From NCBI GenBank assembly GCA_963810935.1, contig CAWEPK010000005.1, positions 288,001 to 352,000 of the forward strand: a DNA stretch of 64,000 nucleotides, read 5' to 3'. The notes under the pieces were generated by a model. It did not search any database. It saw only the letters and a list, made by a program, of their open reading frames with translations, and was not told where the DNA came from. The DNA is from an uncultured delta proteobacterium (lineage in GTDB: Bacteria > Desulfobacterota > Syntrophorhabdia > Syntrophorhabdales > WCHB1-27). How positions within the stretch are numbered: the first letter of the stretch is position 1; each line of letters opens with the position of its first letter. The position numbers and the translations under genes were made by a program. Shown one piece after another: positions 12,064 through 29,367 of the stretch.

Positions 12064-12672
12064 CTAATCGGCCTGCTCCTGCTTCACCTGCTTCTTGCCG
12101 GCCGCTCGCGCAGGTTTTTTCGTTTCAGCATTTTCCGCTTTCTCTTCTTTCGCCTTCTTCTCTTTCTTCGGCGCCTTCTTCTCTTCTTTCTTGCCCTTTT
12201 CCGCCTCGGCCTTCTCTTTCTTGGGCGCCTTGGCCTTCTCCTGCTTTTCCGTTTCCTTCTTCGGCGCAGCCTTCTTAGAGGCCTTCTTTGCCTCTTTCTT
12301 CTGATCCTTCTCTTCCTTCTTCCGGGTCAGCTCGATCAATGCCATAGGTGCCGCGTCCCCTTTTCTGGGACCCAGCTTGAGGACCCGTGTGTAGCCCCCG
12401 TTGACGCCATCATATCTCGCTCCGATGTCCGCAAAGAGCTTCTTTACCACTCCTTTGTCGCGCAGGATGGCGAAGGCGTGGCGCATTGCGTGCGTGCCGC
12501 CGCTTTTTGCCATGGTAATGAGCCTTTCGGCCACGCGCCGAAGCTCCAGCGCCTTCGGATTGGTCGTCTTGATGCTCTCGTGGTAGAAGAGGGAGGCGGC
12601 CAGATTACGAAACAGCGCCTTCCTGTGGCTCGAAGTCCTGCTTAGCTTCCTGCCTGATTTCAAATGCCTCAT
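12064..12672 (-). CDS. rplQ: 50S ribosomal protein L17 with ~86-aa Lys/Glu/Ala-rich tail
   Basis: [36 protein letters not shown]. Confidence 0.96.
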
Positions 12673-15148: not shown

Positions 15149-15262
15149 TTAACCCTGTCTCTGCTTATGCTTGGGGTTTTCGCAAATAACCCTTATAATC
15201 CCTTTTCTCTTGATTATCTTGCATTTGTCGCAACGCTTCTGCACCGAAGGTCTTACCTTCAT
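15149..15262 (-). CDS. rpmJ: 50S ribosomal protein L36 (not in ORF track)
   Basis: Manual translation [37 protein letters not shown]. Confidence 0.96.
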
Positions 15263-15273
15263 AACAAACCCCC

Positions 15274-15329
15274 TACTTCGCCCTGTAAATTATCCTGCCT
15301 CTCGTCAAATCGTACGGCGAGAGCTCGAC
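15274..15329 (-). repeat. 56-bp exact duplicate of the infA 3' end (other copy 15409-15464)
   Basis: Direct alignment of the two segments, period 135 bp. Confidence 0.95.
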
Positions 15330-15406
15330 CAATTATTGGGGCTTGCGTCGCCCCCTCCGGCGGCCAAGCCGCCGGAGCCTCCCCCTCAACAAAAGGAAGA
15401 GGCATT
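15330..15406 (-). repeat. 77-bp structured repeat element, copy A (infA-rpmJ junction)
   Basis: 70/77 identical to 23571-23647; three hairpins. Confidence 0.9.
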
Positions 15407-15407
15407 G

Positions 15408-15626
15408 TTACTTCGCCCTGTAAATTATCCTGCCTCTCGTCAAATCGTACGGCGAGAGCTCGACGATAACCTTATCGCCAGGTAAAATCTTTATATAATT
15501 CATACGCATCTTTCCGGAAACATGGGCCAATACCCTGTGGCCGTTAGGCAGCGCCACCCTGAACATCGCGTTAGGCAGAGGCTCCACCACCGTGCCTTCT
15601 ACTTCTATCCCTTCACCTTTTGGCAT
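15408..15626 (-). CDS. infA: Translation initiation factor IF-1
   Basis: [46 protein letters not shown]. Confidence 0.98.
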
Positions 15627-15632
15627 AGGCCC

Positions 15633-16385
15633 TCATATAGCGCTCAATATCTCCGCCCCCTTCTCCGTGAGGGCGACAGTGTGCTCGAAATGTGCCGAAA
15701 GTCTTCCGTCCCTGGTAGCGGCAGTCCATCCATTCTCCCTGATTACTATATCGCTCGTACCTTCGTTTATCATGGGCTCGATAGCGAGCACCATGCCCTT
15801 TTTCAGCCGCACGCCCGTCCCCCTCGTGCCGAAGTTGGGTATCTGCGGCTCTTCGTGCAGGTGCCTGCCGATGCCGTGGCCGACAAACTCCCGCACTACG
15901 GAAAAACCCTCGGACTCCACGTAGGACTGGACGGCATTGGAAACGTCGTGGAGCCTGCCTCCTTCCCGGACTTCGTCTATACCTTTGTAAAGCGACGCCT
16001 CGGTAACCGAAAGCAGCTTGCGCGCCGCCTCCGATATCTCGCCCACCGGGCAGGTCAACGCAGCGTCGCCATAATAACCTTCGTAAATAGCCCCGAAATC
16101 GAGGCTGACTATGTCCCCTTCTTTGAGGACGCGCTTTTCCGACGGCATCCCGTGGACGATTTCATCATTCACGGAGACGCACAGGCAGTACGGGAACCCA
16201 TTGTAACCTTTGAAGGCCGCCTTTATGCCGTTGCGTTTGGCCAGCATCCCCTCGCACGCCGCTTCCAGGTCCGACGTCCGCACGCCCTCACCAACGTGTT
16301 CTTTCAGCTCCAGCAGCACCTCCATCGCGTACCGGCTGGCAGTCCGCATCCTGCCTATCTCTTGTGCGCTCTTGAGGGTGATCAT
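15633..16385 (-). CDS. map: Methionine aminopeptidase type I
   Basis: CVSVNDEIVHG, GHGIG..LHEEP, AIEPM, SAHFEHT. Confidence 0.97.
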   Translation of the reverse strand: MITLKSAQEIGRMRTASRYAMEVLLELKEHVGEGVRTSDLEAACEGMLAKRNGIKAAFKGYNGFPYCLCVSVNDEIVHGMPSEKRVLKEGDIVSLDFGAIYEGYYGDAALTCPVGEISEAARKLLSVTEASLYKGIDEVREGGRLHDVSNAVQSYVESEGFSVVREFVGHGIGRHLHEEPQIPNFGTRGTGVRLKKGMVLAIEPMINEGTSDIVIRENGWTAATRDGRLSAHFEHTVALTEKGAEILSAI

Positions 16386-16421
16386 CCGTCAAGCCCGCAC
16401 GCAGCGATTGTGCCTCCCATG

Positions 16422-17729
16422 CTACCTTCTCCCCTTTATCCTCGCCGACTTCTTCACAAGACCGTCGTAATGGCGCAGTATAAGATGCGACTCGATCTGC
16501 TGAATCGTGTCGAGACCGACGCCGACCACAATGAGGAGGGCGGTCCCACCGAAATAGAAGGGGGCGTTGAACTTCTGGACCAGGATCGTCGGCAGCACGC
16601 AGACGAACGATATGTAGACGGCGCCCGAAAAGGTAATCCTCGAAAGGATGCGCTCGATGTACTCGGAGGTCTTCTTGCCGGGCCGTATGCCCGGTATATA
16701 TCCGCCGTACTTCTTCATGTTATCGGCTACGTTGTCCGGATTGAAAACGATGGCCGTATAGAAAAAGCAGAAGAAGATGATAAAGCCGACATAAAGCACC
16801 TCGTACCCCACACCGCCGGGGGTAAGGAGCGCTGCAAACCTCTTCATGTAGGGGTGCTGGATGAAATTTGCGATCGTCGCCGGAAACATGATAATGGATG
16901 ACGCGAATATCGGCGGGATGACGCCTGCCTGGTTAATCTTCAGGGGCAGGTGCGTCGATTGGCCCCCGTACATCTTCCTCCCCACTACGCGCTTCGCGTA
17001 CTGGACCGGTATCCTTCTCTGGGCCGTCTCCATGTAGATAATGAAGGCCACGACGACGAACATCATGACCATGAGTAGGATGACGACGAACCAGTTCATC
17101 TCACCCGTGTTCACGAGGCTGCCGGTGCTGGCCAGGGCGTTGGGCATTCTCGCCACGATGCCGGAGAATATGATGAGGGAAATGCCGTTGCCTATGCCTT
17201 TCTCCGTGATCTGCTCGCCGAGCCACATCAGAAAGGACGTGCCGGCGCAAAGGGTAAGCATGGTCATGAGCCTGAAGGACCAGCCTGCGTTATAGACGAC
17301 GAGCTCCCCGCCCGCGCCGCGCATCTGCTCAAGCCCAACGGCGATGCCGAACCCCTGGATGAGGCTTATTACGACCGTCCCGTACCGGGTGTACTGGGTG
17401 ATTTTCCGCCTGCCCGCCTCCCCTTCCTTTGACAACTTCTCGAGGGTAGGCACGACGACCGTAAGGAGCTGCAATATGATCGATGCGCTGATGTACGGCA
17501 TGATGCCGAGGGCGAAGACGGACAGCTTTTCGAGGCCGCCCCCCGCGAACATGTCGAAGAAGCCCAAGAGCGTGCCCCTTGCCCGCTCGAATATGCTCGC
17601 CAGAACCGTGCCGTCTACACCCGGCGTCGGAATGTGGACCCCTATGCGGTAAACTGCGAGAAGCGCGAGGGTCATCAGTATCCTGCGCTTCAGTTCCGGG
17701 ATCCTTCCGATGTTCTGGAAACCACTCAT
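16422..17729 (-). CDS. secY: Preprotein translocase subunit SecY
   Basis: FALGIMPYISASII, GIGNGISLII, YIPGIRPG, FGGTALLIVV. Confidence 0.98.
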   Translation of the reverse strand: MSGFQNIGRIPELKRRILMTLALLAVYRIGVHIPTPGVDGTVLASIFERARGTLLGFFDMFAGGGLEKLSVFALGIMPYISASIILQLLTVVVPTLEKLSKEGEAGRRKITQYTRYGTVVISLIQGFGIAVGLEQMRGAGGELVVYNAGWSFRLMTMLTLCAGTSFLMWLGEQITEKGIGNGISLIIFSGIVARMPNALASTGSLVNTGEMNWFVVILLMVMMFVVVAFIIYMETAQRRIPVQYAKRVVGRKMYGGQSTHLPLKINQAGVIPPIFASSIIMFPATIANFIQHPYMKRFAALLTPGGVGYEVLYVGFIIFFCFFYTAIVFNPDNVADNMKKYGGYIPGIRPGKKTSEYIERILSRITFSGAVYISFVCVLPTILVQKFNAPFYFGGTALLIVVGVGLDTIQQIESHLILRHYDGLVKKSARIKGRR

Positions 17730-18172
17730 TATTGGATTACCTCCACTTCGCCACCCTGGGCCTTTATCTTATCTATGGCCTTCTGCGACGCTTTGTGGAC
17801 CTTTATTTTGACGGCGAAATCGATATCGCCGTTGGAAAGCAGCTTGACCCCGTCCAGCACCTTGTCGATCAGCCCGGTTTCGAGAAGCTCCTTTAGGCCA
17901 ACTTCCGCTGTCCCTTTCAGGGCCTGCAGGTCGCCGACTTTCACGATGGCGTACTCCTTCCTGAACGGGTTCTTGAAGCCGCGCTTCGGTATCCGGCGGG
18001 ACAGAGGCATCTGGCCGCCCTCGAAGCCTTTTCCCTTCGAGGCACCTGCACGCGCCTTCTGGCCCTTGTTGCCCATGGTAGCCGTTTTGCCGTGGCCGGA
18101 ACCGGGGCCCCTTCCGATCCGCTTTCTAGCCTTTTTTGAGCCGGGGCGGCTCTTCAAGTCTTCCAGTTTCAT
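17729..18172 (-). CDS. rplO: 50S ribosomal protein L15
   Basis: GRGPGSGHGKT, GFEGGQMPL..RIPKRGF. Confidence 0.97.
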   Translation of the reverse strand: MKLEDLKSRPGSKKARKRIGRGPGSGHGKTATMGNKGQKARAGASKGKGFEGGQMPLSRRIPKRGFKNPFRKEYAIVKVGDLQALKGTAEVGLKELLETGLIDKVLDGVKLLSNGDIDFAVKIKVHKASQKAIDKIKAQGGEVEVIQ

Positions 18173-18358
18173 TTATCTTACGTCCTCCAGCACGGATACC
18201 AGGTGGATCACCTTCTTGACCATGCCCCGTATCTCGGGCGAGTTCTTGACGACCCGCTCTTCATAGAGCCTTTTGAAGCCCAGGCTTTTCACCGTGCTTC
18301 TCTGGTCCTCCGTGCACGATATCGTGCTCTTCACCCATTTTATCTTGAGGTGTGCCAC
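18173..18358 (-). CDS. rpmD: 50S ribosomal protein L30
   Basis: KSTI..QRSTVKSLG..IRGMV; position in spc operon. Confidence 0.9.
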   Translation of the reverse strand: MAHLKIKWVKSTISCTEDQRSTVKSLGFKRLYEERVVKNSPEIRGMVKKVIHLVSVLEDVR

Positions 18359-18361
18359 GTG

Positions 18362-18862
18362 TTATGCCTCCTCCGGCTTCGATGTCTGCCTGGGGACGAC
18401 CAGACGCGGCTTCAGCGTGGCCAGCCCCTGCATCGTAGCCTTCACCACGTTATGCGGATTACGCGAGCCGTAACACTTCGTGTATATATTGCGGATGCCG
18501 GCCACCTCGACGACGGCCCGCACTGCGCCGCCGGCGATAACGCCGGTACCTTCGGAGGCCGGTTTGATGAAGACGTGGCTCGACCCGTATATGCCCGTTA
18601 TCTCGTAAGGCACCGTGCCCCGGTTGATGGGCACTTCGATGATGCCTTTCTTGGCACGCTCGACGGCCTTCCTGATGGCGTCGGGGACCTCGTTCGCCTT
18701 CCCGAGGCCGAACCCTACGTGGCCGTTCCCGTCTCCCACCACCACGATGGCGCTGAAGCTGAACCTTCTGCCGCCCTTCACGACCTTCGCTACGCGGTTT
18801 ATGTTAACCACTCTGTCCTGCAGCTCGAGCTCTGCCGGGTCAATCCGCTTCTTTTCGATCAA
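18362..18862 (-). CDS. rpsE: 30S ribosomal protein S5
   Basis: [22 protein letters not shown]. Confidence 0.98.
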
Positions 18863-18874
18863 GCCGAATCCTCC

Positions 18875-19240
18875 TTAAAAGATTAGTCCGCCCTCGCGAG
18901 CGCCGTCCGCAAGTGCCTTGACCCTGCCGTGATACTTGAAGCCGCTACGATCGAAAAGAATCTCTTTCACGCCGAGGGCCAGCGCCTTCTTCGCCATCGC
19001 CTCACCCACCGCCTTGGCGCTCGCGGTGTTGCCGCCGTGCTTGATTCCGCCTTTCACTTCGGCGGTCAGCGTGGAGACGCCCGTGATCACCTTGCCCGTC
19101 CCGTCGTCCACGAGCTGCGCGTACATGTGCCGCAGGCTCTTGAAGACGCAGAGTCTCGGCCGGGCGGCAGTCCCGGAGATCTTCTTCCGGACCCTCTTCT
19201 TCCTCTTCAGCCTTCCCTCTATTTTATCTTTTCTTTCCAT
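18875..19240 (-). CDS. rplR: 50S ribosomal protein L18
   Basis: RPRLCVFKS, FDRSGFKYHGRVKALAD. Confidence 0.97.
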   Translation of the reverse strand: MERKDKIEGRLKRKKRVRKKISGTAARPRLCVFKSLRHMYAQLVDDGTGKVITGVSTLTAEVKGGIKHGGNTASAKAVGEAMAKKALALGVKEILFDRSGFKYHGRVKALADGAREGGLIF

Positions 19241-19252
19241 CGCTAACGCCCC

Positions 19253-19789
19253 TTATTTGCCTGTCTTACCCGCCTTCTTGCGCAGCACCTCGCCCGCATA
19301 TTTGACGCCCTTGCCCTTATAAGGGTCGGGCTTCCTCAAATCCCTTATCTTCGCGGCCGTCTGGCCGACCAGCTCCTTGTCTATCCCCTTGATGGTGACT
19401 AGGGTCTGTTTCTCCACTTCCGCAGATATGCCTTTCGGCAGCGGGAAATCTATCGGGTGCGAATAGCCGAGATAGAGGGCAAGGCTGGTGCCTTTCAGCT
19501 CCGACCGGTAGCCGATGCCGACGATCTCCAGCTTCTTTTCGTAGCCCTTCGACACACCCTCGACCATGTTGGCCACGAGGGTTCGCATGAGGCCGTGGTA
19601 GCTCCTCGACCGCTTGTCGTCGGCCAGCCTCTTCACGTTGACCACAGCAGCCCCGATGTCCATCTCGATACCTTCGAGGAGCGGCCTTTCGAGCGCCCCT
19701 TTCTGGCCTTTTACCGATACCAGCCCATCCTTGATATCAACGTTGACTCCGGAGGGCAGGGGTATGGGTTTTTTTCCTATCCTTGACAT
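19253..19789 (-). CDS. rplF: 50S ribosomal protein L6
   Basis: MSRIGKKP, PDPYKGKGV. Confidence 0.98.
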   Translation of the reverse strand: MSRIGKKPIPLPSGVNVDIKDGLVSVKGQKGALERPLLEGIEMDIGAAVVNVKRLADDKRSRSYHGLMRTLVANMVEGVSKGYEKKLEIVGIGYRSELKGTSLALYLGYSHPIDFPLPKGISAEVEKQTLVTIKGIDKELVGQTAAKIRDLRKPDPYKGKGVKYAGEVLRKKAGKTGK

Positions 19790-19797
19790 CTAACACC

Positions 19798-20199
19798 TCA
19801 CCAGATCCGAAAGAGCAGTTCCCCTCCCAGGCGCTTGTCGATGGCCTGCTTATCGGTCATAAGCCCCCTGGATGTTGAGACGACCGCCGTTCCGAGCTTG
19901 CCTTTCTCTCGTCCTATGTCCAGGGCCTTCACGTAGACCCGCCTGCCGGGCTTGCTGATTCTGCGCAGCCCTGAGATCACGCTTTTCGAGCGTTCGTCGT
20001 AGCCGATGTAAACCTTTATGAACTTCTTCCGCGCCTCATCTACGAAAACCTTGTAGTTCCTGAGGTAGCCTTCTTCCTTGAGGAGCCTGGCGATGGAGAA
20101 CTTCGCCGTCGAATAAGGCATATCGGTCCATTCATGGCGCACCATGACTGCGTTCCTTATTCTTGTCAGCATGTCGGCTATCGGATCTGTAGTTATCAT
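19798..20199 (-). CDS. rpsH: 30S ribosomal protein S8
   Basis: DPIADMLTRIRNA, RISKPGRRVY, STSRG. Confidence 0.97.
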   Translation of the reverse strand: MITTDPIADMLTRIRNAVMVRHEWTDMPYSTAKFSIARLLKEEGYLRNYKVFVDEARKKFIKVYIGYDERSKSVISGLRRISKPGRRVYVKALDIGREKGKLGTAVVSTSRGLMTDKQAIDKRLGGELLFRIW

Positions 20200-20207
20200 T
20201 TATCCTC

Positions 20208-20394
20208 CTACCAGGCTCGATTTGATAACCCCGGGCAGCTCGCCTCTCAGGGCAAGCGACCGGAAGCAGATCCTGCACATCTCGAACTTGCCGATGTAGC
20301 CGCGCGGTCTCCCGCAGATAGTACACCTGTTTCTGGATCTCACCCCAAATTTCGGGGCCCGGTTCGCCTTCTCGATCATGCCCTTTCGCGCCAT
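20208..20394 (-). CDS. rpsN: 30S ribosomal protein S14, zinc-binding type (apparent +1 base at 20214-20215)
   Basis: [15 protein letters not shown]; removing one base restores the conserved KSSW-stop end. Confidence 0.95.
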
Positions 20395-20402
20395 CACTCC
20401 TC

Positions 20403-20945
20403 CTAGCTTCTGAAAGGCATGCCCATGAGCTTCAAAAGCTCAAATGCCTCTTCGTCGTTGATTGCCGTAGTTGCGATCGTGATATTCATGCCTCTCACCC
20501 GGTCGACCTTGTCGTACTCGATCTCGGGGAAGATGATCTGTTCCTTTAAGCCTAGAGTGTAGTTCCCCCTGCCGTCGAACGACTTCGCGGAGACGCCCTT
20601 GAAGTCCCTGACCCTCGGCAGAACGATGGTCACGAGCTTCTGGTAGAACTCGTACATCCGCTCGCGCCGCAGAGTGACCATACAGCCGATGGGCATACCC
20701 TTGCGGAGCTTGAAGGAAGCTATCGACTTGCTCGCCTTCGTGATAACGGGCTTCTGCCCCGCGATCAGGGCCATGTCGCCGGAGGCGGCATCGAGGGCCT
20801 TGATATTCTGGATGGCCTCCCCAAGACCCATGTTGAGCACGACCTTGGTCAGTCTGGGCGCCTGCATCACGTTCTTGTACTTAAACTTACGTATTAATGC
20901 AGGCCGTATCTCTTTTTCATACTGCTCCATATACGCCGTTTTCAC
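20403..20945 (-). CDS. rplE: 50S ribosomal protein L5
   Basis: [29 protein letters not shown]. Confidence 0.97.
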
Positions 20946-20953
20946 TACCCCTC

Positions 20954-21277
20954 CTACTTGTCGAAGACCTCGTTGCACTTCTTGCAGTATCGAGACTTCT
21001 TGCCGTCTTCGAGGACGCGCGTCCCCGCCCTGACGGGCTTGGAGCATTTGTCGCAATACATCATGACGTTCGAAACGTGGATGGCGCTCTCCCGCTCCAT
21101 GATGCCGCCCTTGGTCTTCTGGCTGGGCCGCACGTGGCGCTTGATCATGTTCACCTTTTCCACTATGATCCGGTCTGTCTTTCGGTTTATGCGGAGAACT
21201 TTGCCGGTCTTACCCTTGTCTTTCCCCGCCATCACCATGACCGTGTCATTCTTTTTGACGTGATATGCCTTTTCCAT
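20954..21277 (-). CDS. rplX: 50S ribosomal protein L24
   Basis: KOW motif [21 protein letters not shown]. Confidence 0.97.
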
Positions 21278-21283
21278 GCTACC

Positions 21284-21653
21284 TCACACTACCTCGGGGG
21301 CAAGAGAGACGATCTTCATGAAGCGCCTCGCCCGCAGACTCTCTCGCTACGGGCCCGAAAATCCTGGTCCCTACCGGCTCGTTGTACTGGTTTATGATAA
21401 CGGCCGAATTGTCGTCGAAACGGACATACGAGCCGTCGATCCTTCTTATCTCTTTTTTGGTGCGGACGATGACTGCCTTGACGACTTCGCCTTTCTTCAC
21501 CTTGCTGTTCGGCAACACCTCTTTCACCGAGCAGACAATGATGTCGCCAACGGTGCCGTACCGCTTCCTGGAGCCACCCAGGATGCGTATGCAGCCTAGC
21601 TTCTTGGCTCCCGAGTTGTCTGCGACTTCGAGCTTCGTCCTCACCTGTATCAT
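21284..21653 (-). CDS. rplN: 50S ribosomal protein L14 (apparent +1 base at 21338)
   Basis: [19 protein letters not shown]; removing one base gives [22 protein letters not shown]. Confidence 0.96.
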
Positions 21654-21655
21654 GG

Positions 21656-21946
21656 TTAAGCCACCTCGTTCGCCTCGGGCGCCGGCGATTCCTTAGCGAT
21701 GATCTCTTTGACCACCCACCGCTTGTCCTTACTGAGCGGTCTTGTCTCCACGATCAGCACCTTATCGCCGATCTTAGCCTTGTTCTCTTCGTCATGGGCC
21801 TTGCACGTCGTCTTCGAGCGGAGGTACTTGTGGTACGCCGGATGCTTAAGGACGCGCTCCACCTCGACGACGACCGTCTTGTCCATCTTGTCCTTGACGA
21901 CTATGCCTATCAGCTTTTTCTTTCTCGCGTCCTTTTTCTCTTCCAT
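21656..21946 (-). CDS. rpsQ: 30S ribosomal protein S17
   Basis: [25 protein letters not shown]. Confidence 0.97.
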
Positions 21947-21949
21947 CGC

Positions 21950-22150
21950 TTATACCTGCCTGCCTTGGGCCTTTTCGTGGAGCACGGCCATTATCCGCGC
22001 AAGGTCCTTTCTTGCGATCTTCATGCGCGCCGTGTTTTCGAGCTGCCCGGTCGAATGGCGGAACCTGAGGTTAAATACCTCTTCCTTCAGTTCTTTATGC
22101 CTCTTCGCGAGCTCTTCCGGGGTCAGGTCTCTAAACTCTTTGGCTTTCAT
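21950..22150 (-). CDS. rpmC: 50S ribosomal protein L29
   Basis: FNLRF..TGQLENT..RKDLARI. Confidence 0.95.
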
Positions 22151-22563
22151 TCTACCCGGCTCCTCATGGCAAATTTCGTCTGTATCGGAAGTTTCTGGGC
22201 GGCTATGCGCAGGGCTTCGCGGGCTTTTTCCTCGGTCACGCCCATGATCTCGTATAAGACCTTGCCGGGCTTAACGACCGCTACCCAGCCCTCGACCGGG
22301 CCCTTGCCTTTGCCCATTCTCGTCTCTGCCGGCTTCTTCGTGATCGGCTTATCCGGGAAGACGCGGATCCAGAGCTTCCCCGTCCTCTTGACGTACCTGG
22401 AAAGCGTCACGCGGGCCGCTTCTATCTGGCGGGCTGTGACCCATCCACATTCGGTAGCCTGCAGGCCGTAATCGCCGAAGCTCACTTCCGCGCCCCTAGA
22501 CGAGACGCCTCTCATCCTGCCTTTCTGCTGTTTTCTGTATTTGACCCTCTTAGGTGCAAGCAT
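22147..22563 (-). CDS. rplP: 50S ribosomal protein L16
   Basis: [27 protein letters not shown]. Confidence 0.98.
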
Positions 22564-23208
22564 TTACCTTGTCTCCTGATAAACTTCACCTTTGAAGAGC
22601 CAGACCTTTACGCCGATCACGCCGTACTTCGTCGAAGCGGTCGCAACCCCGTAATCGATGTCCGCCCTTATCGTCTGGAGGGGGACCCTGCCCTCTCTGT
22701 ACCACTCGGTCCTCGCCATCTCTGCGCCGGCGAGCCTGCCGGAGCACATTATCTTGATGCCCTTCGCCCCGAACTTCATGGCCTGGGAGACGTTCCTCTT
22801 CATGGCCCTCCTGAAGGAGACGCGCCGCTCCAACTGCAGGGCGACGTTTTCGGAAACGAGCTGGGCGTCGACTTCCGGCCGCTTCACTTCCGTGATATTG
22901 AGCAATATCTCTTTATCCGTAAGTTTCTGAAGCTCTCTTTTCAGACTCTCGACCTCTGCGCCTTTCCTGCCTATGACGATGCCGGGGCGCGAAGTCCAGA
23001 TATTCATCTTCGCCCTCTTATCTTTATTGGCGGCCCTCTCTATCTCCATCTTGGAGATGCCCGCCTGATAGAGCCTCGCCTTGAGGAACTTCTTCATGCG
23101 GAGATCCTCGTGGAGGAAGAGCGCGTAATTCTTGGACGCGAACCACTTGGAATCCCAAGTCCTGATCGTCCCAAGCCTGAAACCTATTGGATGTGTCTTC
23201 TGACCCAA
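22564..23208 (-). CDS. rpsC: 30S ribosomal protein S3
   Basis: [26 protein letters not shown]. Confidence 0.98.
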
Positions 23209-23223
23209 TTTAACCCCCGCTTG

Positions 23224-23556
23224 TTATGTTTCGTCCAAGACTAACGTAACGTGACTCATTCTTTTGCGTATCGGGGTGGCACGCCCCATTGCCCTCGGGA
23301 GGAACCTCTTCATGGTAGGCCCCTCGTTCACTACGATATTCTTTACGTAGAGCGTGTCCACGTCCACGTATTTTTGCTGTCGCGCGTTTCCGATGGCGGA
23401 ATCGAGCAGTTTCTTGAGGATATAGGCCCCTTTTCTCGGCGTAAACTGGAGTATGCCGAGGGCGGTGTTGACGTTCTTCTTCTTAATGAGATCGCCGACG
23501 ATCCGCACCTTTACGGCTGAGATCCTCATCATATTCGCTTTCGCCACGATTTCCAT
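23224..23556 (-). CDS. rplV: 50S ribosomal protein L22
   Basis: Start MEIVAK after AGGAG SD; GPTMKRFLPRAMGRA; the longer track ORF reads through the repeat element. Confidence 0.96.
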   Translation of the reverse strand: MEIVAKANMMRISAVKVRIVGDLIKKKNVNTALGILQFTPRKGAYILKKLLDSAIGNARQQKYVDVDTLYVKNIVVNEGPTMKRFLPRAMGRATPIRKRMSHVTLVLDET

Positions 23557-23570
23557 TTCCCACTCCTGAA

Positions 23571-23647
23571 CAATTATTGGGGCTAGCGTCGCCCCCTCCA
23601 CCGGCAAAGCCGTCGGAGCCTCCCCCTCATAAAAAGGAAGAGGCATT
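23571..23647 (-). repeat. 77-bp structured repeat element, copy B (rpsS-rplV junction)
   Basis: 70/77 identical to 15330-15406. Confidence 0.9.
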
Positions 23648-23666
23648 AAAGAAAACCACTTCCATC

Positions 23667-23716
23667 GGGGCTAGCGTCGCCCCCTCCACAGACCAAAGTC
23701 CGCGGAGCTTTCTCCT
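23667..23716 (-). repeat. Partial, diverged copy C of the same element
   Basis: Shares GGGGCTAGCGTCGCCCCCTCCAC with copy B; central hairpin resequenced but still paired. Confidence 0.85.
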
Positions 23717-23717
23717 G

Positions 23718-24008
23718 TTACTCCTTCCTCTTCACTACCTTTGCTTTCCTGTCTCCCGAGTGGCTGTGGAAGATCCGGGTGGGCGCGAACTCGCCCAGCT
23801 TGTGACCTACCATCTCCTCACTCACGAAAACGGGGATAAACTTCTTGCCGTTATGGACTGCGAAGGTCAGGCCGACAAAATCGGGGGTAATGGTAGAGCG
23901 CCTCGACCACGTCTTAATGACTTTCGATTCCCTCGAGCCCTTTGCATAATCCACCTTCAGCATGAGATCGTCGTCGACGAACGCCCCTTTCTTCAGCGAC
24001 CTAGGCAC
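23718..24008 (-). CDS. rpsS: 30S ribosomal protein S19
   Basis: [26 protein letters not shown]. Confidence 0.98.
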
Positions 24009-26067: not shown

Positions 26068-26093
26068 ATTTTTCCTCTTCTATGGCTCTAGTA

Positions 26094-27293
26094 TTACTCT
26101 AATATCTCCGTCACTACTCCGGCGCCTACGGTCTTGCCGCCTTCCCTGATGGCGAAGCGCAGCTCTTTCTCAAGGGCGATCTGGGTCACGAGATCTACGG
26201 TAATGGTGACGTTGTCGCCGGGCATGATCATCTCAACGCCTTCGGGGAGATGGACTATGCCCGTCACGTCGGTGGTGCGCAGGTAGAACTGGGGACGGTA
26301 GCCCGTGAAGAAGGGGGTATGGCGGCCTCCCTCTTCCTTGCTCAGCACGTAGACCTCGGCCTTGAACTTCGTATGGGGGGTTATCGAGCCCGGCTTAGCC
26401 AGGACCTGACCCCTTTCGACCTCGTCCTTCTTGGTGCCGCGGAGAAGGACGCCTATGTTGTCGCCCGCCTGTCCCTGATCTAAGATCTTGCGGAACATCT
26501 CTACGGATGTGGCAACTGTCTTCTGGGTGGGGGTGAAGCCTATGATCTCCACCTCTTCACCGGGCTTTACGACTCCACGCTCCACGCGGCCCGTTACGAC
26601 GGTGCCACGGCCCGAGATGGAGAAGACGTCCTCTATAGGCATGAGGAAGGGCTTGTCCGTGTCGCGGACCGGCTCGGGGATATAGGAGTCGCAGGCATCG
26701 AGGAGCTCGAAGATGCTCTTGCAGTGGGGGCAGTCGGGCTTGCCGTCTCCGCACTCTAAGGCTTTAAGAGCAGAGCCCTTTATGATCGGTATCTTGTCTC
26801 CGGGGAACTCGTAAGCGGTGAGAAGCTCGCGCAGCTCCAGCTCGACAAGCTCTATAAGCTCGGGGTCGTCTACCATGTCGACTTTGTTCAGGTAGACAAC
26901 GACGTAGGGGACGCCGACCTGGCGGGCAAGGAGGATATGCTCCCTTGTCTGCGGCATGGGGCCGTCGTTTGCGCCCACGACAAGGATGGCGCCGTCCATC
27001 TGGGCCGCCCCTGTGATCATGTTCTTTATATAGTCAGCATGGCCCGGACAGTCCACGTGTGCGTAGTGGCGCTTATCCGTCTCGTATTCTACGTGGGCGG
27101 TTGCGATCGTTATGCCCCTTTCCTTCTCCTCGGGGGCCTTATCTATCTGATCGAACGGTATCCATTCCGCAAATCCCTTGTTGGCAAGACAGCGGGTGAT
27201 GGCGGATGTCAGGGTTGTCTTCCCGTGGTCGATGTGGCCTATGGTGCCTACATTGACATGGGGTTTTTTGCGCTCGAACTTTTTCTTAGCCAT
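26094..27293 (-). CDS. tuf: Elongation factor Tu
   Basis: [28 protein letters not shown]. Confidence 0.99.
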
Positions 27294-29367
27294 AGAGAGC
27301 CTCCGTAACTGTTTTTTCTCTATTCTTCATAAGGTCTTCGACGATGGACGGAGGGGTGGGCGCGTAGTGGGCGAACTCCATGGTGTAGTATCCCCTGCCC
27401 TGGGTGATCGAGCGAAGCCGGGTCGTGTACCCGAACATCTCGCCGAGAGGCAGGTGCGCCTGTACGTACTTCACCTCGTTCCTTTCGTCGATATCAACGA
27501 TCCTCCCCCTGCGCGCACTGATGTCGCCGACCATGGCGCCCAGGTACTCGGGGGGAGCGGAGAGATCGACCCTCATAATCGGCTCCAGAATAATGGGGTT
27601 GGCCTTTCTCACCGCCTCTTTTACCGCAATCGACGCTGCGAGCTTGAATGCAAGCTCCGACGAATCGACTTCATGGTAGGAGCCGTCGGTCAGCTCCACC
27701 TTTATGTTTATCAAAGGATGCCCGAGGACTACGCCCTGCTCCAGGGCCTCCCTCACACCTTTTTCTATGGCCCCCATGTACTCCCTGGGTATGACGCCGC
27801 CGACCGTCTTGTTCTCGAACTCAAGGTCCTTGCCTTCTACGGGCGATACCTCGAGGACTACGTGGCCGTACTGCCCCTTGCCGCCGGACTGCTTGATGTA
27901 TTTGCCGACTGCGGATGCGCGCCGTGTGACCGTCTCCCTGTAGGCTACCTGCGGGGCGGAGAACGACATGTTCAGGTTGTGCTCGCGCTTCGCCCTGTCC
28001 ATGATGATATCAAGGTGCAGCTCGCCCATGCCGGAGAGCACAACCTCGCCAGTTTCCTCGTCCATCTTGACCTTGAGGGACGGGTCTTCGAGCGTATACT
28101 GGTTGAAGACGAACCACATCTTCTTCAGGTCGTCTTTCTTTTTGGTTGTCACTGCAATGGAAACTACCGGGGTAGGGACTTCGATGGTCTCGAAAAGGAC
28201 AGGGTGGTCGGTGTCGGCAAGCGTGTTGCCCGTCGAGACATTCTTGAGGCCCGATACCGCGCATATGTCGCCGGCTTCCACCGTCTTGATCTCCTCGCGT
28301 TTGTTCGCGTGGAGCCTGAGTATCCTGCCAATCCTTTCCGTCTTCTGCCTGGTGCTGTTCAAGACGGTCTGGCCCTGCTTGAGCCGGCCGGAATAGACCC
28401 TCATATAACTCAAACGGCCCACGAAGGGGTCGTTCATGATCTTAAAAACAAGACCGCTGAACGGCTCATCGACCGAGCCCGTAACGGCCGTTTCTTCGCC
28501 GTCTTCGTTCCAGCAGGCATACGGGGAGACATCGACGGGGGAGGGCAGGTAATCGACTATCGCGTCGAGGAGCGGCTGCACGCCCTTATTCTTGAAAGCG
28601 GTGCCGCAAAGGACGGGCAGGATGCTGCCTTCGAGCGTGCCCTTCCTGACGACCCGCTTCACGTCGTCCGCGCTTATCTCTTTGCCGTGGACGAAGCAGT
28701 CCATCAGCTCGTCGTCGATCTCGGATAAGGACTCCAGCATCGCCTCGCGCGCCGCATGATACCGCCTCTTCATTGCAGAAGGTACCTCGGTAACGGAATA
28801 TTCAACGCCCATGCGGTCGCGGTCATAAAGCAGCGCAACCCCGGCGATAAGGTCTATAGCACCTGCGAAATCGTCCCCTTCCTTGATAGGGACCTGCAGG
28901 GCGACCGGCTTGGCCTTCAGAATATCCTTCATCATGGCCATGCACTTGTCGAGGTCGGCGCCGGGCCTGTCCATCTTGTTGACGAACGCGATGCGGGGGA
29001 CGCCGTAGCGGTCAGCCTGTCTCCAGACCGTCTCCGACTGGGGCTCTACGCCCTCTACGCCTGAGAAAAGCGCCACCGCGCCGTCGAGGACGCGGAGCGA
29101 CCTGCCTACTTCAACGGTGAAATCTATATGACCCGGCGTGTCGATTATATTGATGCGGTGATCACGCCAGAAGCACGTAGTCGCGGCCGATGTGATCGTA
29201 ATGCCGCGGTCTTTCTCTTCCTGCATCCAGTCCATGGTGGACGTACCTTCGTCCACCTCGCCTATCCTGTTATTGACGCCCGTGTAATAAAGTATCCTCT
29301 CGGTCGTCGTTGTCTTTCCGGCATCGATATGCGCCATGATGCCGACGTTTCTAATAACTTCCTGCAT
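27286..29367 (-). CDS. fusA: Elongation factor G (appears divergent)
   Basis: [39 protein letters not shown]; between rpsG and tuf. Confidence 0.95.

Follow-up and report, generated by a model that had tools for sequence, protein, structure and literature searches.

Several described systems resemble, each in part, a hairpin element that we analysed in a ribosomal protein operon of an uncultured delta proteobacterium (order Syntrophorhabdales). The element lies in two full copies and one partial copy in the stretch studied here, which we call the window (64,000 nucleotides (nt) of contig CAWEPK010000005.1). Its behaviour recalls the REP and BIME repeats with their TnpA-REP (RAYT) proteins, which, in the parts of their accounts available to us, are likewise high-copy extragenic hairpin repeats that have a single functional strand, form mosaic clusters and amplify locally (PMC3333891, PMC8266576, PMC6006769). 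Unlike REPs, the element has no GTAG foot and no element-flanked tnpA-REP gene was found in our searches; its arrays run head-to-tail rather than as the inverted pairs of BIMEs and REPINs. Those same accounts, as far as available, do not describe for REPs the long target duplications with a GA-registered junction that we report here (PMC3333891, PMC8266576, PMC6006769). The element behaves like a REP but falls outside the REPtron, and it is neither a MITE (miniature transposable element with inverted repeats) nor an IS200 derivative.

The nearest description is that of YPAL (RU-2) in Yersinia, given in the accessible part of its source as a 168-bp element with variable duplications of 3-26 bp near dyad symmetry and an unknown mover (PMC2229807). 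Compared by description, both lack TA ends, are GC-rich, contain internal inverted repeats and make variable duplications. Ours differs in being modular and about 55-130 bp long, and its duplications span the ends of genes and reach 105 bp. Insertions of restriction-modification genes are also flanked by long duplications of variable length, the site being empty in relatives and no mobile element being recognised, according to the portion of that study at hand (PMC2853133). There, kilobases of genes were inserted, whereas our insert contains no gene: it is a hairpin present in many copies, with one end fixed and a preference for a particular dinucleotide. IS1634 and IS1549 belong to a family of DDE elements with inverted ends. 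They too give long variable direct repeats (PMC2266710, available in part), but inverted ends are absent from our element, and its genome has no such partner. No description of the family itself was found among titles and abstract openings, a survey in which subscription journals are scarcely covered.

A modular repeat family and its copies in the window

The element is one variant in a gene-less, modular family of hairpin repeats with about 150 dispersed copies in the source genome, G000 (4.06 Mb, 93% complete, 7% contaminated). There, an nhmmer profile gave 143 matches at E<0.01 and a 3'-anchor pattern gave 150, against 0 in the reversed genome. The first-pass annotation had described a three-hairpin 77-bp unit inserted in the ribosomal protein superoperon, and both parts of that description needed widening: the unit is real but represents one subfamily (41 of the 150 copies), and the superoperon does hold copies but is one location among many. 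Constant to the family is its 3' part, consisting of the central hairpin, a GGGG/CCCC hairpin and the tail RRTRATTG, which is followed by C in 81/150 copies. The 5' part varies. Beside the 41 copies with stem 1, which is an exchangeable 5' module, 85 carry another module and 5 a third, 3 are split by an IS110-family insertion and 16 are unclassified.

Most copies (137/150) lie outside the open reading frames (ORFs) called by our own ORF caller. Terminal inverted repeats are absent: the ends of the copy A insert share just 4 nt, out of register, and 5' ends vary between copies. Some hairpin feet are G-rich (GGAG- or GGTG-like) and partly paired in neighbouring stems. The few opposed pairs of elements that occur stand across separate junctions, and a search for a long, cargo-carrying form among 551 copies gave three matches, all arrays or chance. 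One tandem pair of copies follows a second tuf gene copy (contig C9:245825-247238, matching window 26092-27306).

The folded strand can be read from the base pairs. Across 77 distinct 23-nt central hairpins (770 pair cells, pairs 1-3 being forced by the search pattern), 698 cells are Watson-Crick, 41 are G-T, 6 are A-C and 25 are other mismatches, and pairs 4-8 show several alternative pair types. Since G-T so outnumbers A-C, the G-rich strand is the folded one, which bears out the earlier claim of conservation as a single-strand structure, but this excess cannot separate RNA from DNA. Where the two flanking genes run in the same direction, the G-rich strand coincides with that of the mRNA in 68 copies and is antisense in 18 (p 5e-8, with clustered copies not being independent of each other).

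In the window, the copies and their genes are as follows, the names of infA (IF-1) and rpmJ (L36) being our own recognition from the sequence:

15149..15262, minus strand: presumably rpmJ (L36, 37 amino acids (aa))
15274..15329, minus strand: downstream copy of a 56-bp duplication, beginning right after the element's fixed 3' end
15330..15408, minus strand: copy A insert, the 79 bp between the two repeats, made up of the 77-bp subfamily-1 element and 2 nt at the 5' junction
15330-15406, minus strand: copy A, the 77-bp element proper, between infA and rpmJ
15409..15464, minus strand: upstream copy of the 56-bp duplication, serving as the working infA 3' end
15408..15626, minus strand: presumably infA (IF-1, 72 aa)
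23224..23556, minus strand: rplV (L22)
23571..23647, minus strand: copy B, a full subfamily-1 element, 14 nt ahead of the rplV start codon
23667..23716, minus strand: copy C, reduced to the central and 3' hairpins and a decayed tail, immediately 3' of the rpsS stop codon
23718..24008, minus strand: rpsS (S19); in several relatives, the duplicated target is the 3' end of this gene

Copy A is flanked by a perfect 56-bp direct repeat of the last 56 bases of infA (15274-15329 = 15409-15464), a feature that the first-pass annotation had passed over. The infA stop codon becomes TAA through the first base of the insert, and the downstream repeat retains the original TAG stop, overlapping the rpmJ ribosome-binding site. 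At the raw-data level there is a hint only: in one read-assembly run (X1), a contig with 1 difference in 516 bases omits 135 bp at copy A, but contigs can collapse such repeats, no such joint occurs in runs X2-X4, and the four runs come from one study. Copies C and B both sit in the rpsS-rplV junction, and no long flanking duplication was detected at either.

Much of what had been said of the three copies held on re-examination. A and B are identical at 70/77 positions, C is partial, and all three lie on the minus (mRNA) strand. Folding A and B recovers the three stems and favours that strand: copy A gives -48.4 kcal/mol (z -5.5) against -39.7 on the plus strand, and copy B -39.6 kcal/mol (z -4.3) against -29.1. 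The central stem of copy B has one G-U pair and, as the single true mismatch, an A-G. That the element was not recognised as one of a named family also stands, in that Rfam at gathering score returned three tRNAs only for the whole window and nothing for the element. Below threshold, the one match in 15200-24000 was Clostridiales-2, which was rejected as the identity of the element at 21.4 bits against a cut-off of 58.6. As a separate observation, ORF 12064-12672 (probably rplQ) has an imperfect 54-bp tandem repeat in its Lys/Ala-rich extension (12157-12264).

Duplicated gene ends, junctions and empty sites

The duplication at copy A recurs across the family. In G000, a repeat begins near the element's 3' end at 33/150 copies compared with 5/1497 controls, a count that takes in element-internal repeats. 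When G000 is pooled with the loci fetched from other genomes, a flanking duplication is found at 96/501 copies and at 0/1003 random sites. Curation dropped 17 of the 96 (same-array repeats, element-internal or weak matches) and kept 79, with duplications of 13-105 bases overall. Thirty-eight of these involve a single element (repeats of 13-95 bp) and 41 are flagged as having a second element downstream, a loose flag that also marks the 105-bp case, where there is a single element. What is duplicated is mostly the end of a gene: in 64/79 cases the repeat lies within an open frame on the sense strand that is 240 bases or longer, one duplication covers the end of a tRNA-Arg, and of the 30 coding cases with a single element, 23 have a repeat that ends no more than 9 bases from the stop codon.

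Merging orthologous loci reduces the 79 cases to 58 distinct sites, and at these the 3' junction is sharp and the 5' junction loose. The repeat starts 0-2 bases past the tail at 53/58 sites, and the dinucleotide GA precedes it at 31/58, compared with a background of 8.0% (p 3e-19). In-frame GA sites fall after codon position 2 in 29/37, which sequence context and repeated orthologous sites may explain. The target upstream of GA shows no likeness to the element tail, and where the element has C at the junction the target's A stands instead; microhomology therefore does not explain the preference for GA. In junction mismatches at positions +1 to +3, target bases are mostly replaced in register, rather than extra bases being added. 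Fourteen loci recur between genomes, several from different start points, which argues that the same gene ends are hit repeatedly.

Two further observations concern the duplicates themselves. At three loci (contig C8:260879 of G000; L251, L249), most differences between the downstream duplicate and the working gene end are at synonymous positions, a bias that neutral decay does not predict. At two others (contig C3:84533 of G000; L351), the duplicated ends resemble tRNA or tmRNA 3' ends and start inside the T-loop; the one at C3:84533 is not among the ARAGORN lines displayed.

Empty sites speak for insertion, and with the dispersed copies they sustain the view of a non-autonomous mobile element. 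The infA-rpmJ junction is empty in 15 of 19 relatives and none of the 19 has the 56-bp repeat; the other 4, all of one other genus, carry different element variants straight after the stop codon. Beyond the duplicate at copy A, the sequence matches that of the empty relatives, with no remnant. Within the G000 assembly itself, contig C14, which is 97-98% identical to a stretch of contig C12, has a single copy of a 105-bp sequence for which C12 has repeat-element-repeat. At contig C12:281943, the insertion makes a new stop codon and shortens the upstream gene by a few codons, C14 holding the empty form.

The rpsS-rplV junction is a hot spot, with copies in most genomes of three genera. In one relative the junction is 24 bp long; seven others have an element followed by a duplicate of the rpsS end, and each such duplicate resembles the rpsS gene of its own genome. 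In genus g3 (L258, L262, L263), the same junction holds different short-repeat hairpins with 8-mer-like units, unrelated to the family. The exact 3' pattern occurs in 21/22 family genomes (0-82 copies each, control 0) and in none of 290 genomes of the phylum outside the order, and BLAST with copy B found relatives of the element in 66/81 genomes of the order. Among the 80 matches listed, the matching records are Syntrophorhabdales, Syntrophorhabdus, Syntrophaceae, Syntrophus or deltaproteobacteria, and one viral contig also matched.

This distribution bears on whether the element is a domesticated regulatory RNA, such as a processing or stabilising signal of translation operons. The strong sense bias, the stable RNA fold, the occupancy of rpsS-rplV in most genomes of three genera and a weak terminator-like call at the end of copy B (2 found, 0.7 expected) are what such an RNA would lead one to expect. 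Presence is patchy, however, with different variants at the same junction, about 150 sites stand beside unrelated genes, and no Rfam family matches; we regard this explanation as highly improbable. Because both junctions are filled, empty or variant-filled in close relatives, the regulatory half of the earlier suggestion finds no support as a dedicated role, and a secondary effect on mRNA stability is possible. The terminator-like call, from a consensus scan, falls on the 3' hairpin of copy B (23579-23595, minus strand), inside an operon that must be read through.

The same data invite an account with no dedicated enzyme at all, in which host replication or repair at a pre-existing hairpin (a nick or stall, upstream re-start and end-joining by Ku/LigD) would build arrays of target-element-target-element that later lose parts, recombination between repeats regenerating empty sites. 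The second element after the duplicate in 41/79 cases, the recurrence of the same gene ends across genomes, the presence of Ku and the lack of a partner gene in any search would all fit. Yet 38/79 cases have a single element, the match to empty relatives beyond copy A shows no trace of a lost neighbour, the GA preference is not microhomology, and arrival at a new site is left unexplained. On balance, we consider this account rather unlikely.

Candidate enzymes and resident insertion sequences

The first-pass annotation had proposed looking for a linked RAYT/Y1, DUF559 or reverse transcriptase gene, and no element-linked gene of these kinds was found. In G000, the Y1_Tnp profile matched one IS200-like element only (7 copies), and the RVT_1 (PF00078), DUF559 and Cas1 profiles gave no match. 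The Y2_Tnp profile gave none either, but nor did its control. GIY-YIG matched one 586-aa frame, which from its size we take to be UvrC; there are 8 tyrosine recombinases, and Ku is present. Among the 214 ORFs adjoining copies, no mobile genes stood out except IS110 and IS200, neighbours of up to 330 aa having been judged by eye on their first 62 residues, without a Pfam scan, and ORF clustering over 111 loci revealed no recurring nuclease. Most family genomes encode long RAYT-like proteins (about 320 aa, with an extended C-terminus; contig C8:712521 (L195) in G000, L183-L210), whose genes are bounded by short inverted repeats of their own; PF01797 missed the one in G000.

These results set limits on retroposition, in which a structured RNA would be copied from a target nick by a reverse transcriptase acting in trans (target-primed reverse transcription). 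As in retroposons of that type, the 3' end is fixed, the 5' end and the duplication length vary, and the 3' junction has 0-2 nt of slack; the folded strand is the transcribed strand, reverse transcriptases occur in 17/22 family genomes, and the excess of in-frame GA after codon position 2 (29/37) would also suit it, though context may explain that. Against this, PF00078 is without a match in G000, where copy A looks recent, and in four other genomes (G002, G015, G011, G006; 66-87% complete). None of 30 fetched reverse transcriptase loci of the family has an element nearby, and the +1 to +3 junction mismatches mostly replace target bases in register rather than adding any. We therefore think retroposition unlikely.

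A further explanation would make the element the MITE of a DDE transposon with long variable repeats, of the IS1634/IS1549 type, or else the product of a small circle that bears a gene end and integrates by homologous recombination. IS1549 and IS1634 do give repeats of 8-514 bp (PMC2266710, in the part available), and the duplicates that differ mainly at synonymous positions look as a foreign allele would. The absence of terminal inverted repeats largely refutes the first version, and the only DDE_Tnp_1 gene in G000 (the single DDE family searched) has ends of its own that are unrelated to the element. Neither version accords with the lack of a cargo-carrying form, and a homologous route would not place the junction consistently at GA and at the end of the element. 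Taken together, this explanation seems improbable.

Two insertion sequences do meet the repeat, which serves as their target:

contigs C10:159271-160508, C7:218154, C18:9500, C20:1 and C8:756027 (L030-L034): IS110-family insertions in G000
L001-L007: IS200-like element, 649 bp, 7 copies, of which 2 have a frameshift; it targets TAAT with T after it and has TGAT at its right end

All five IS110-family copies are inside the second subfamily: four near-identical ones share a site, one of these being truncated by the end of a contig, and the fifth, a diverged copy, lies a few bases away. In this, too, the family is like REPs, which serve as targets of IS110-family elements; the targeting of REPs by IS621 in E. 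coli is a parallel. The stretch of about 200 non-coding bases upstream of the IS110 gene is likely the bridge RNA, and the copies offer a ready case of IS110 targeting an undescribed repeat. The IS200-like element stands at TAAT in the repeat's tail in 4/7 copies, and the tail contains the TAAT and TGAT sites that this resident element uses. Its ends form single-strand hairpins with the same C-TTT-G type of loop as the repeat, but differ from it otherwise, and its abundance does not track that of the repeat. Since it makes no duplication and its protein was found in 9/22 family genomes only (the repeat being in 21/22), it would exploit the repeat rather than move it. The guide rule known from IS608 agrees with the IS200 sites, whereas the GA junction does not follow it.

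A tentative mechanism and its meaning

The reading that we favour, while giving it somewhat less than an even chance, is that of a REP-like non-autonomous element moving as folded single-stranded DNA, by one-ended single-strand transfer and re-copying by the host. A nicking and joining enzyme, of the HUH/Y1 type or similar, would cut the exposed coding strand after GA and join the element's 3' end to the downstream side of the nick; the freed end would then be extended by a host polymerase, re-copying 13-105 target bases. Closure at the 5' part of the element might rely on homology to an older copy immediately downstream, yielding arrays, mosaics and hot spots, or on end-joining where there is no such copy. 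Selection would retain the events with a 5' junction at or near the stop codon. The empty sites, the duplications (96/501), the GA register, the G-T strand excess, the sense bias, the hot spots and the presence of Ku all speak for this reading, as does the likeness of the hairpin loops to those of the resident IS200 ends. It also has precedents in accounts available to us in part: TnpA-REP performs dinucleotide-directed single-strand cleavage away from the hairpin, with strand transfer (PMC8266576), and a rolling-circle-like amplification model exists for REPs (PMC3333891).

Several points weigh against it. No cognate enzyme was found, and none of 30 fetched RAYT-like (NF047646) loci, a subset of the matches that includes G000's single one, has the element alongside. 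IS200 was not found in G001 and G002, which have 61 and 82 exact-pattern copies. GA precedes the repeat in 7/19 G000 cases only, copy A is without GA in register, and 405/501 copies have no detectable long duplication. No target duplication is described in the available parts of the accounts on REP and IS200 elements, among them PMC8266576 and PMC3333891. A replication-strand test came out opposite to the lagging-template bias of IS608-type elements (33 vs 57), a weak result limited by weak GC skew, with 60/150 copies unassigned. Finally, a fixed 3' end, a truncated 5' end and a variable duplication are hallmarks of retroposition too. More broadly, and with more reserve, it is conceivable that the family is part of a class of mobile elements without genes that has so far gone unrecognised and may span domains, in which a fixed end is joined at a coding-strand GA and the host re-copies tens of bases, giving harmless entry to gene ends and gap-less junctions. 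The mover would be either a housekeeping enzyme that nicks and joins or one not yet tied to mobility.

The way in which REP-like repeats arrive at new sites is described as open in the part of the literature at hand (PMC8266576), and long variable target duplications are there without an accepted mechanism (PMC2266710). The family offers a readable footprint in this respect: the element's end is fixed, one target dinucleotide is preferred, strand and length range are defined, and there are empty sites to match. Its chemistry can therefore be tested with oligonucleotides, and the 66 positive and 15 negative genomes allow a search for partner genes that co-occur with the family.

For the organism, the consequence may hold whatever the chemistry. 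A duplication of length L would widen the range of harmless insertion points from the gap between two genes to the gap plus L, which would account for copies between genes that normally abut: the duplication keeps both the upstream stop codon and the downstream ribosome-binding site, and a gap-less junction can therefore be hit. This explains how foreign DNA can enter ribosomal protein operons, where stop codons overlap ribosome-binding sites. It is likely, then, that target duplication lets the element enter packed operons without breaking them.

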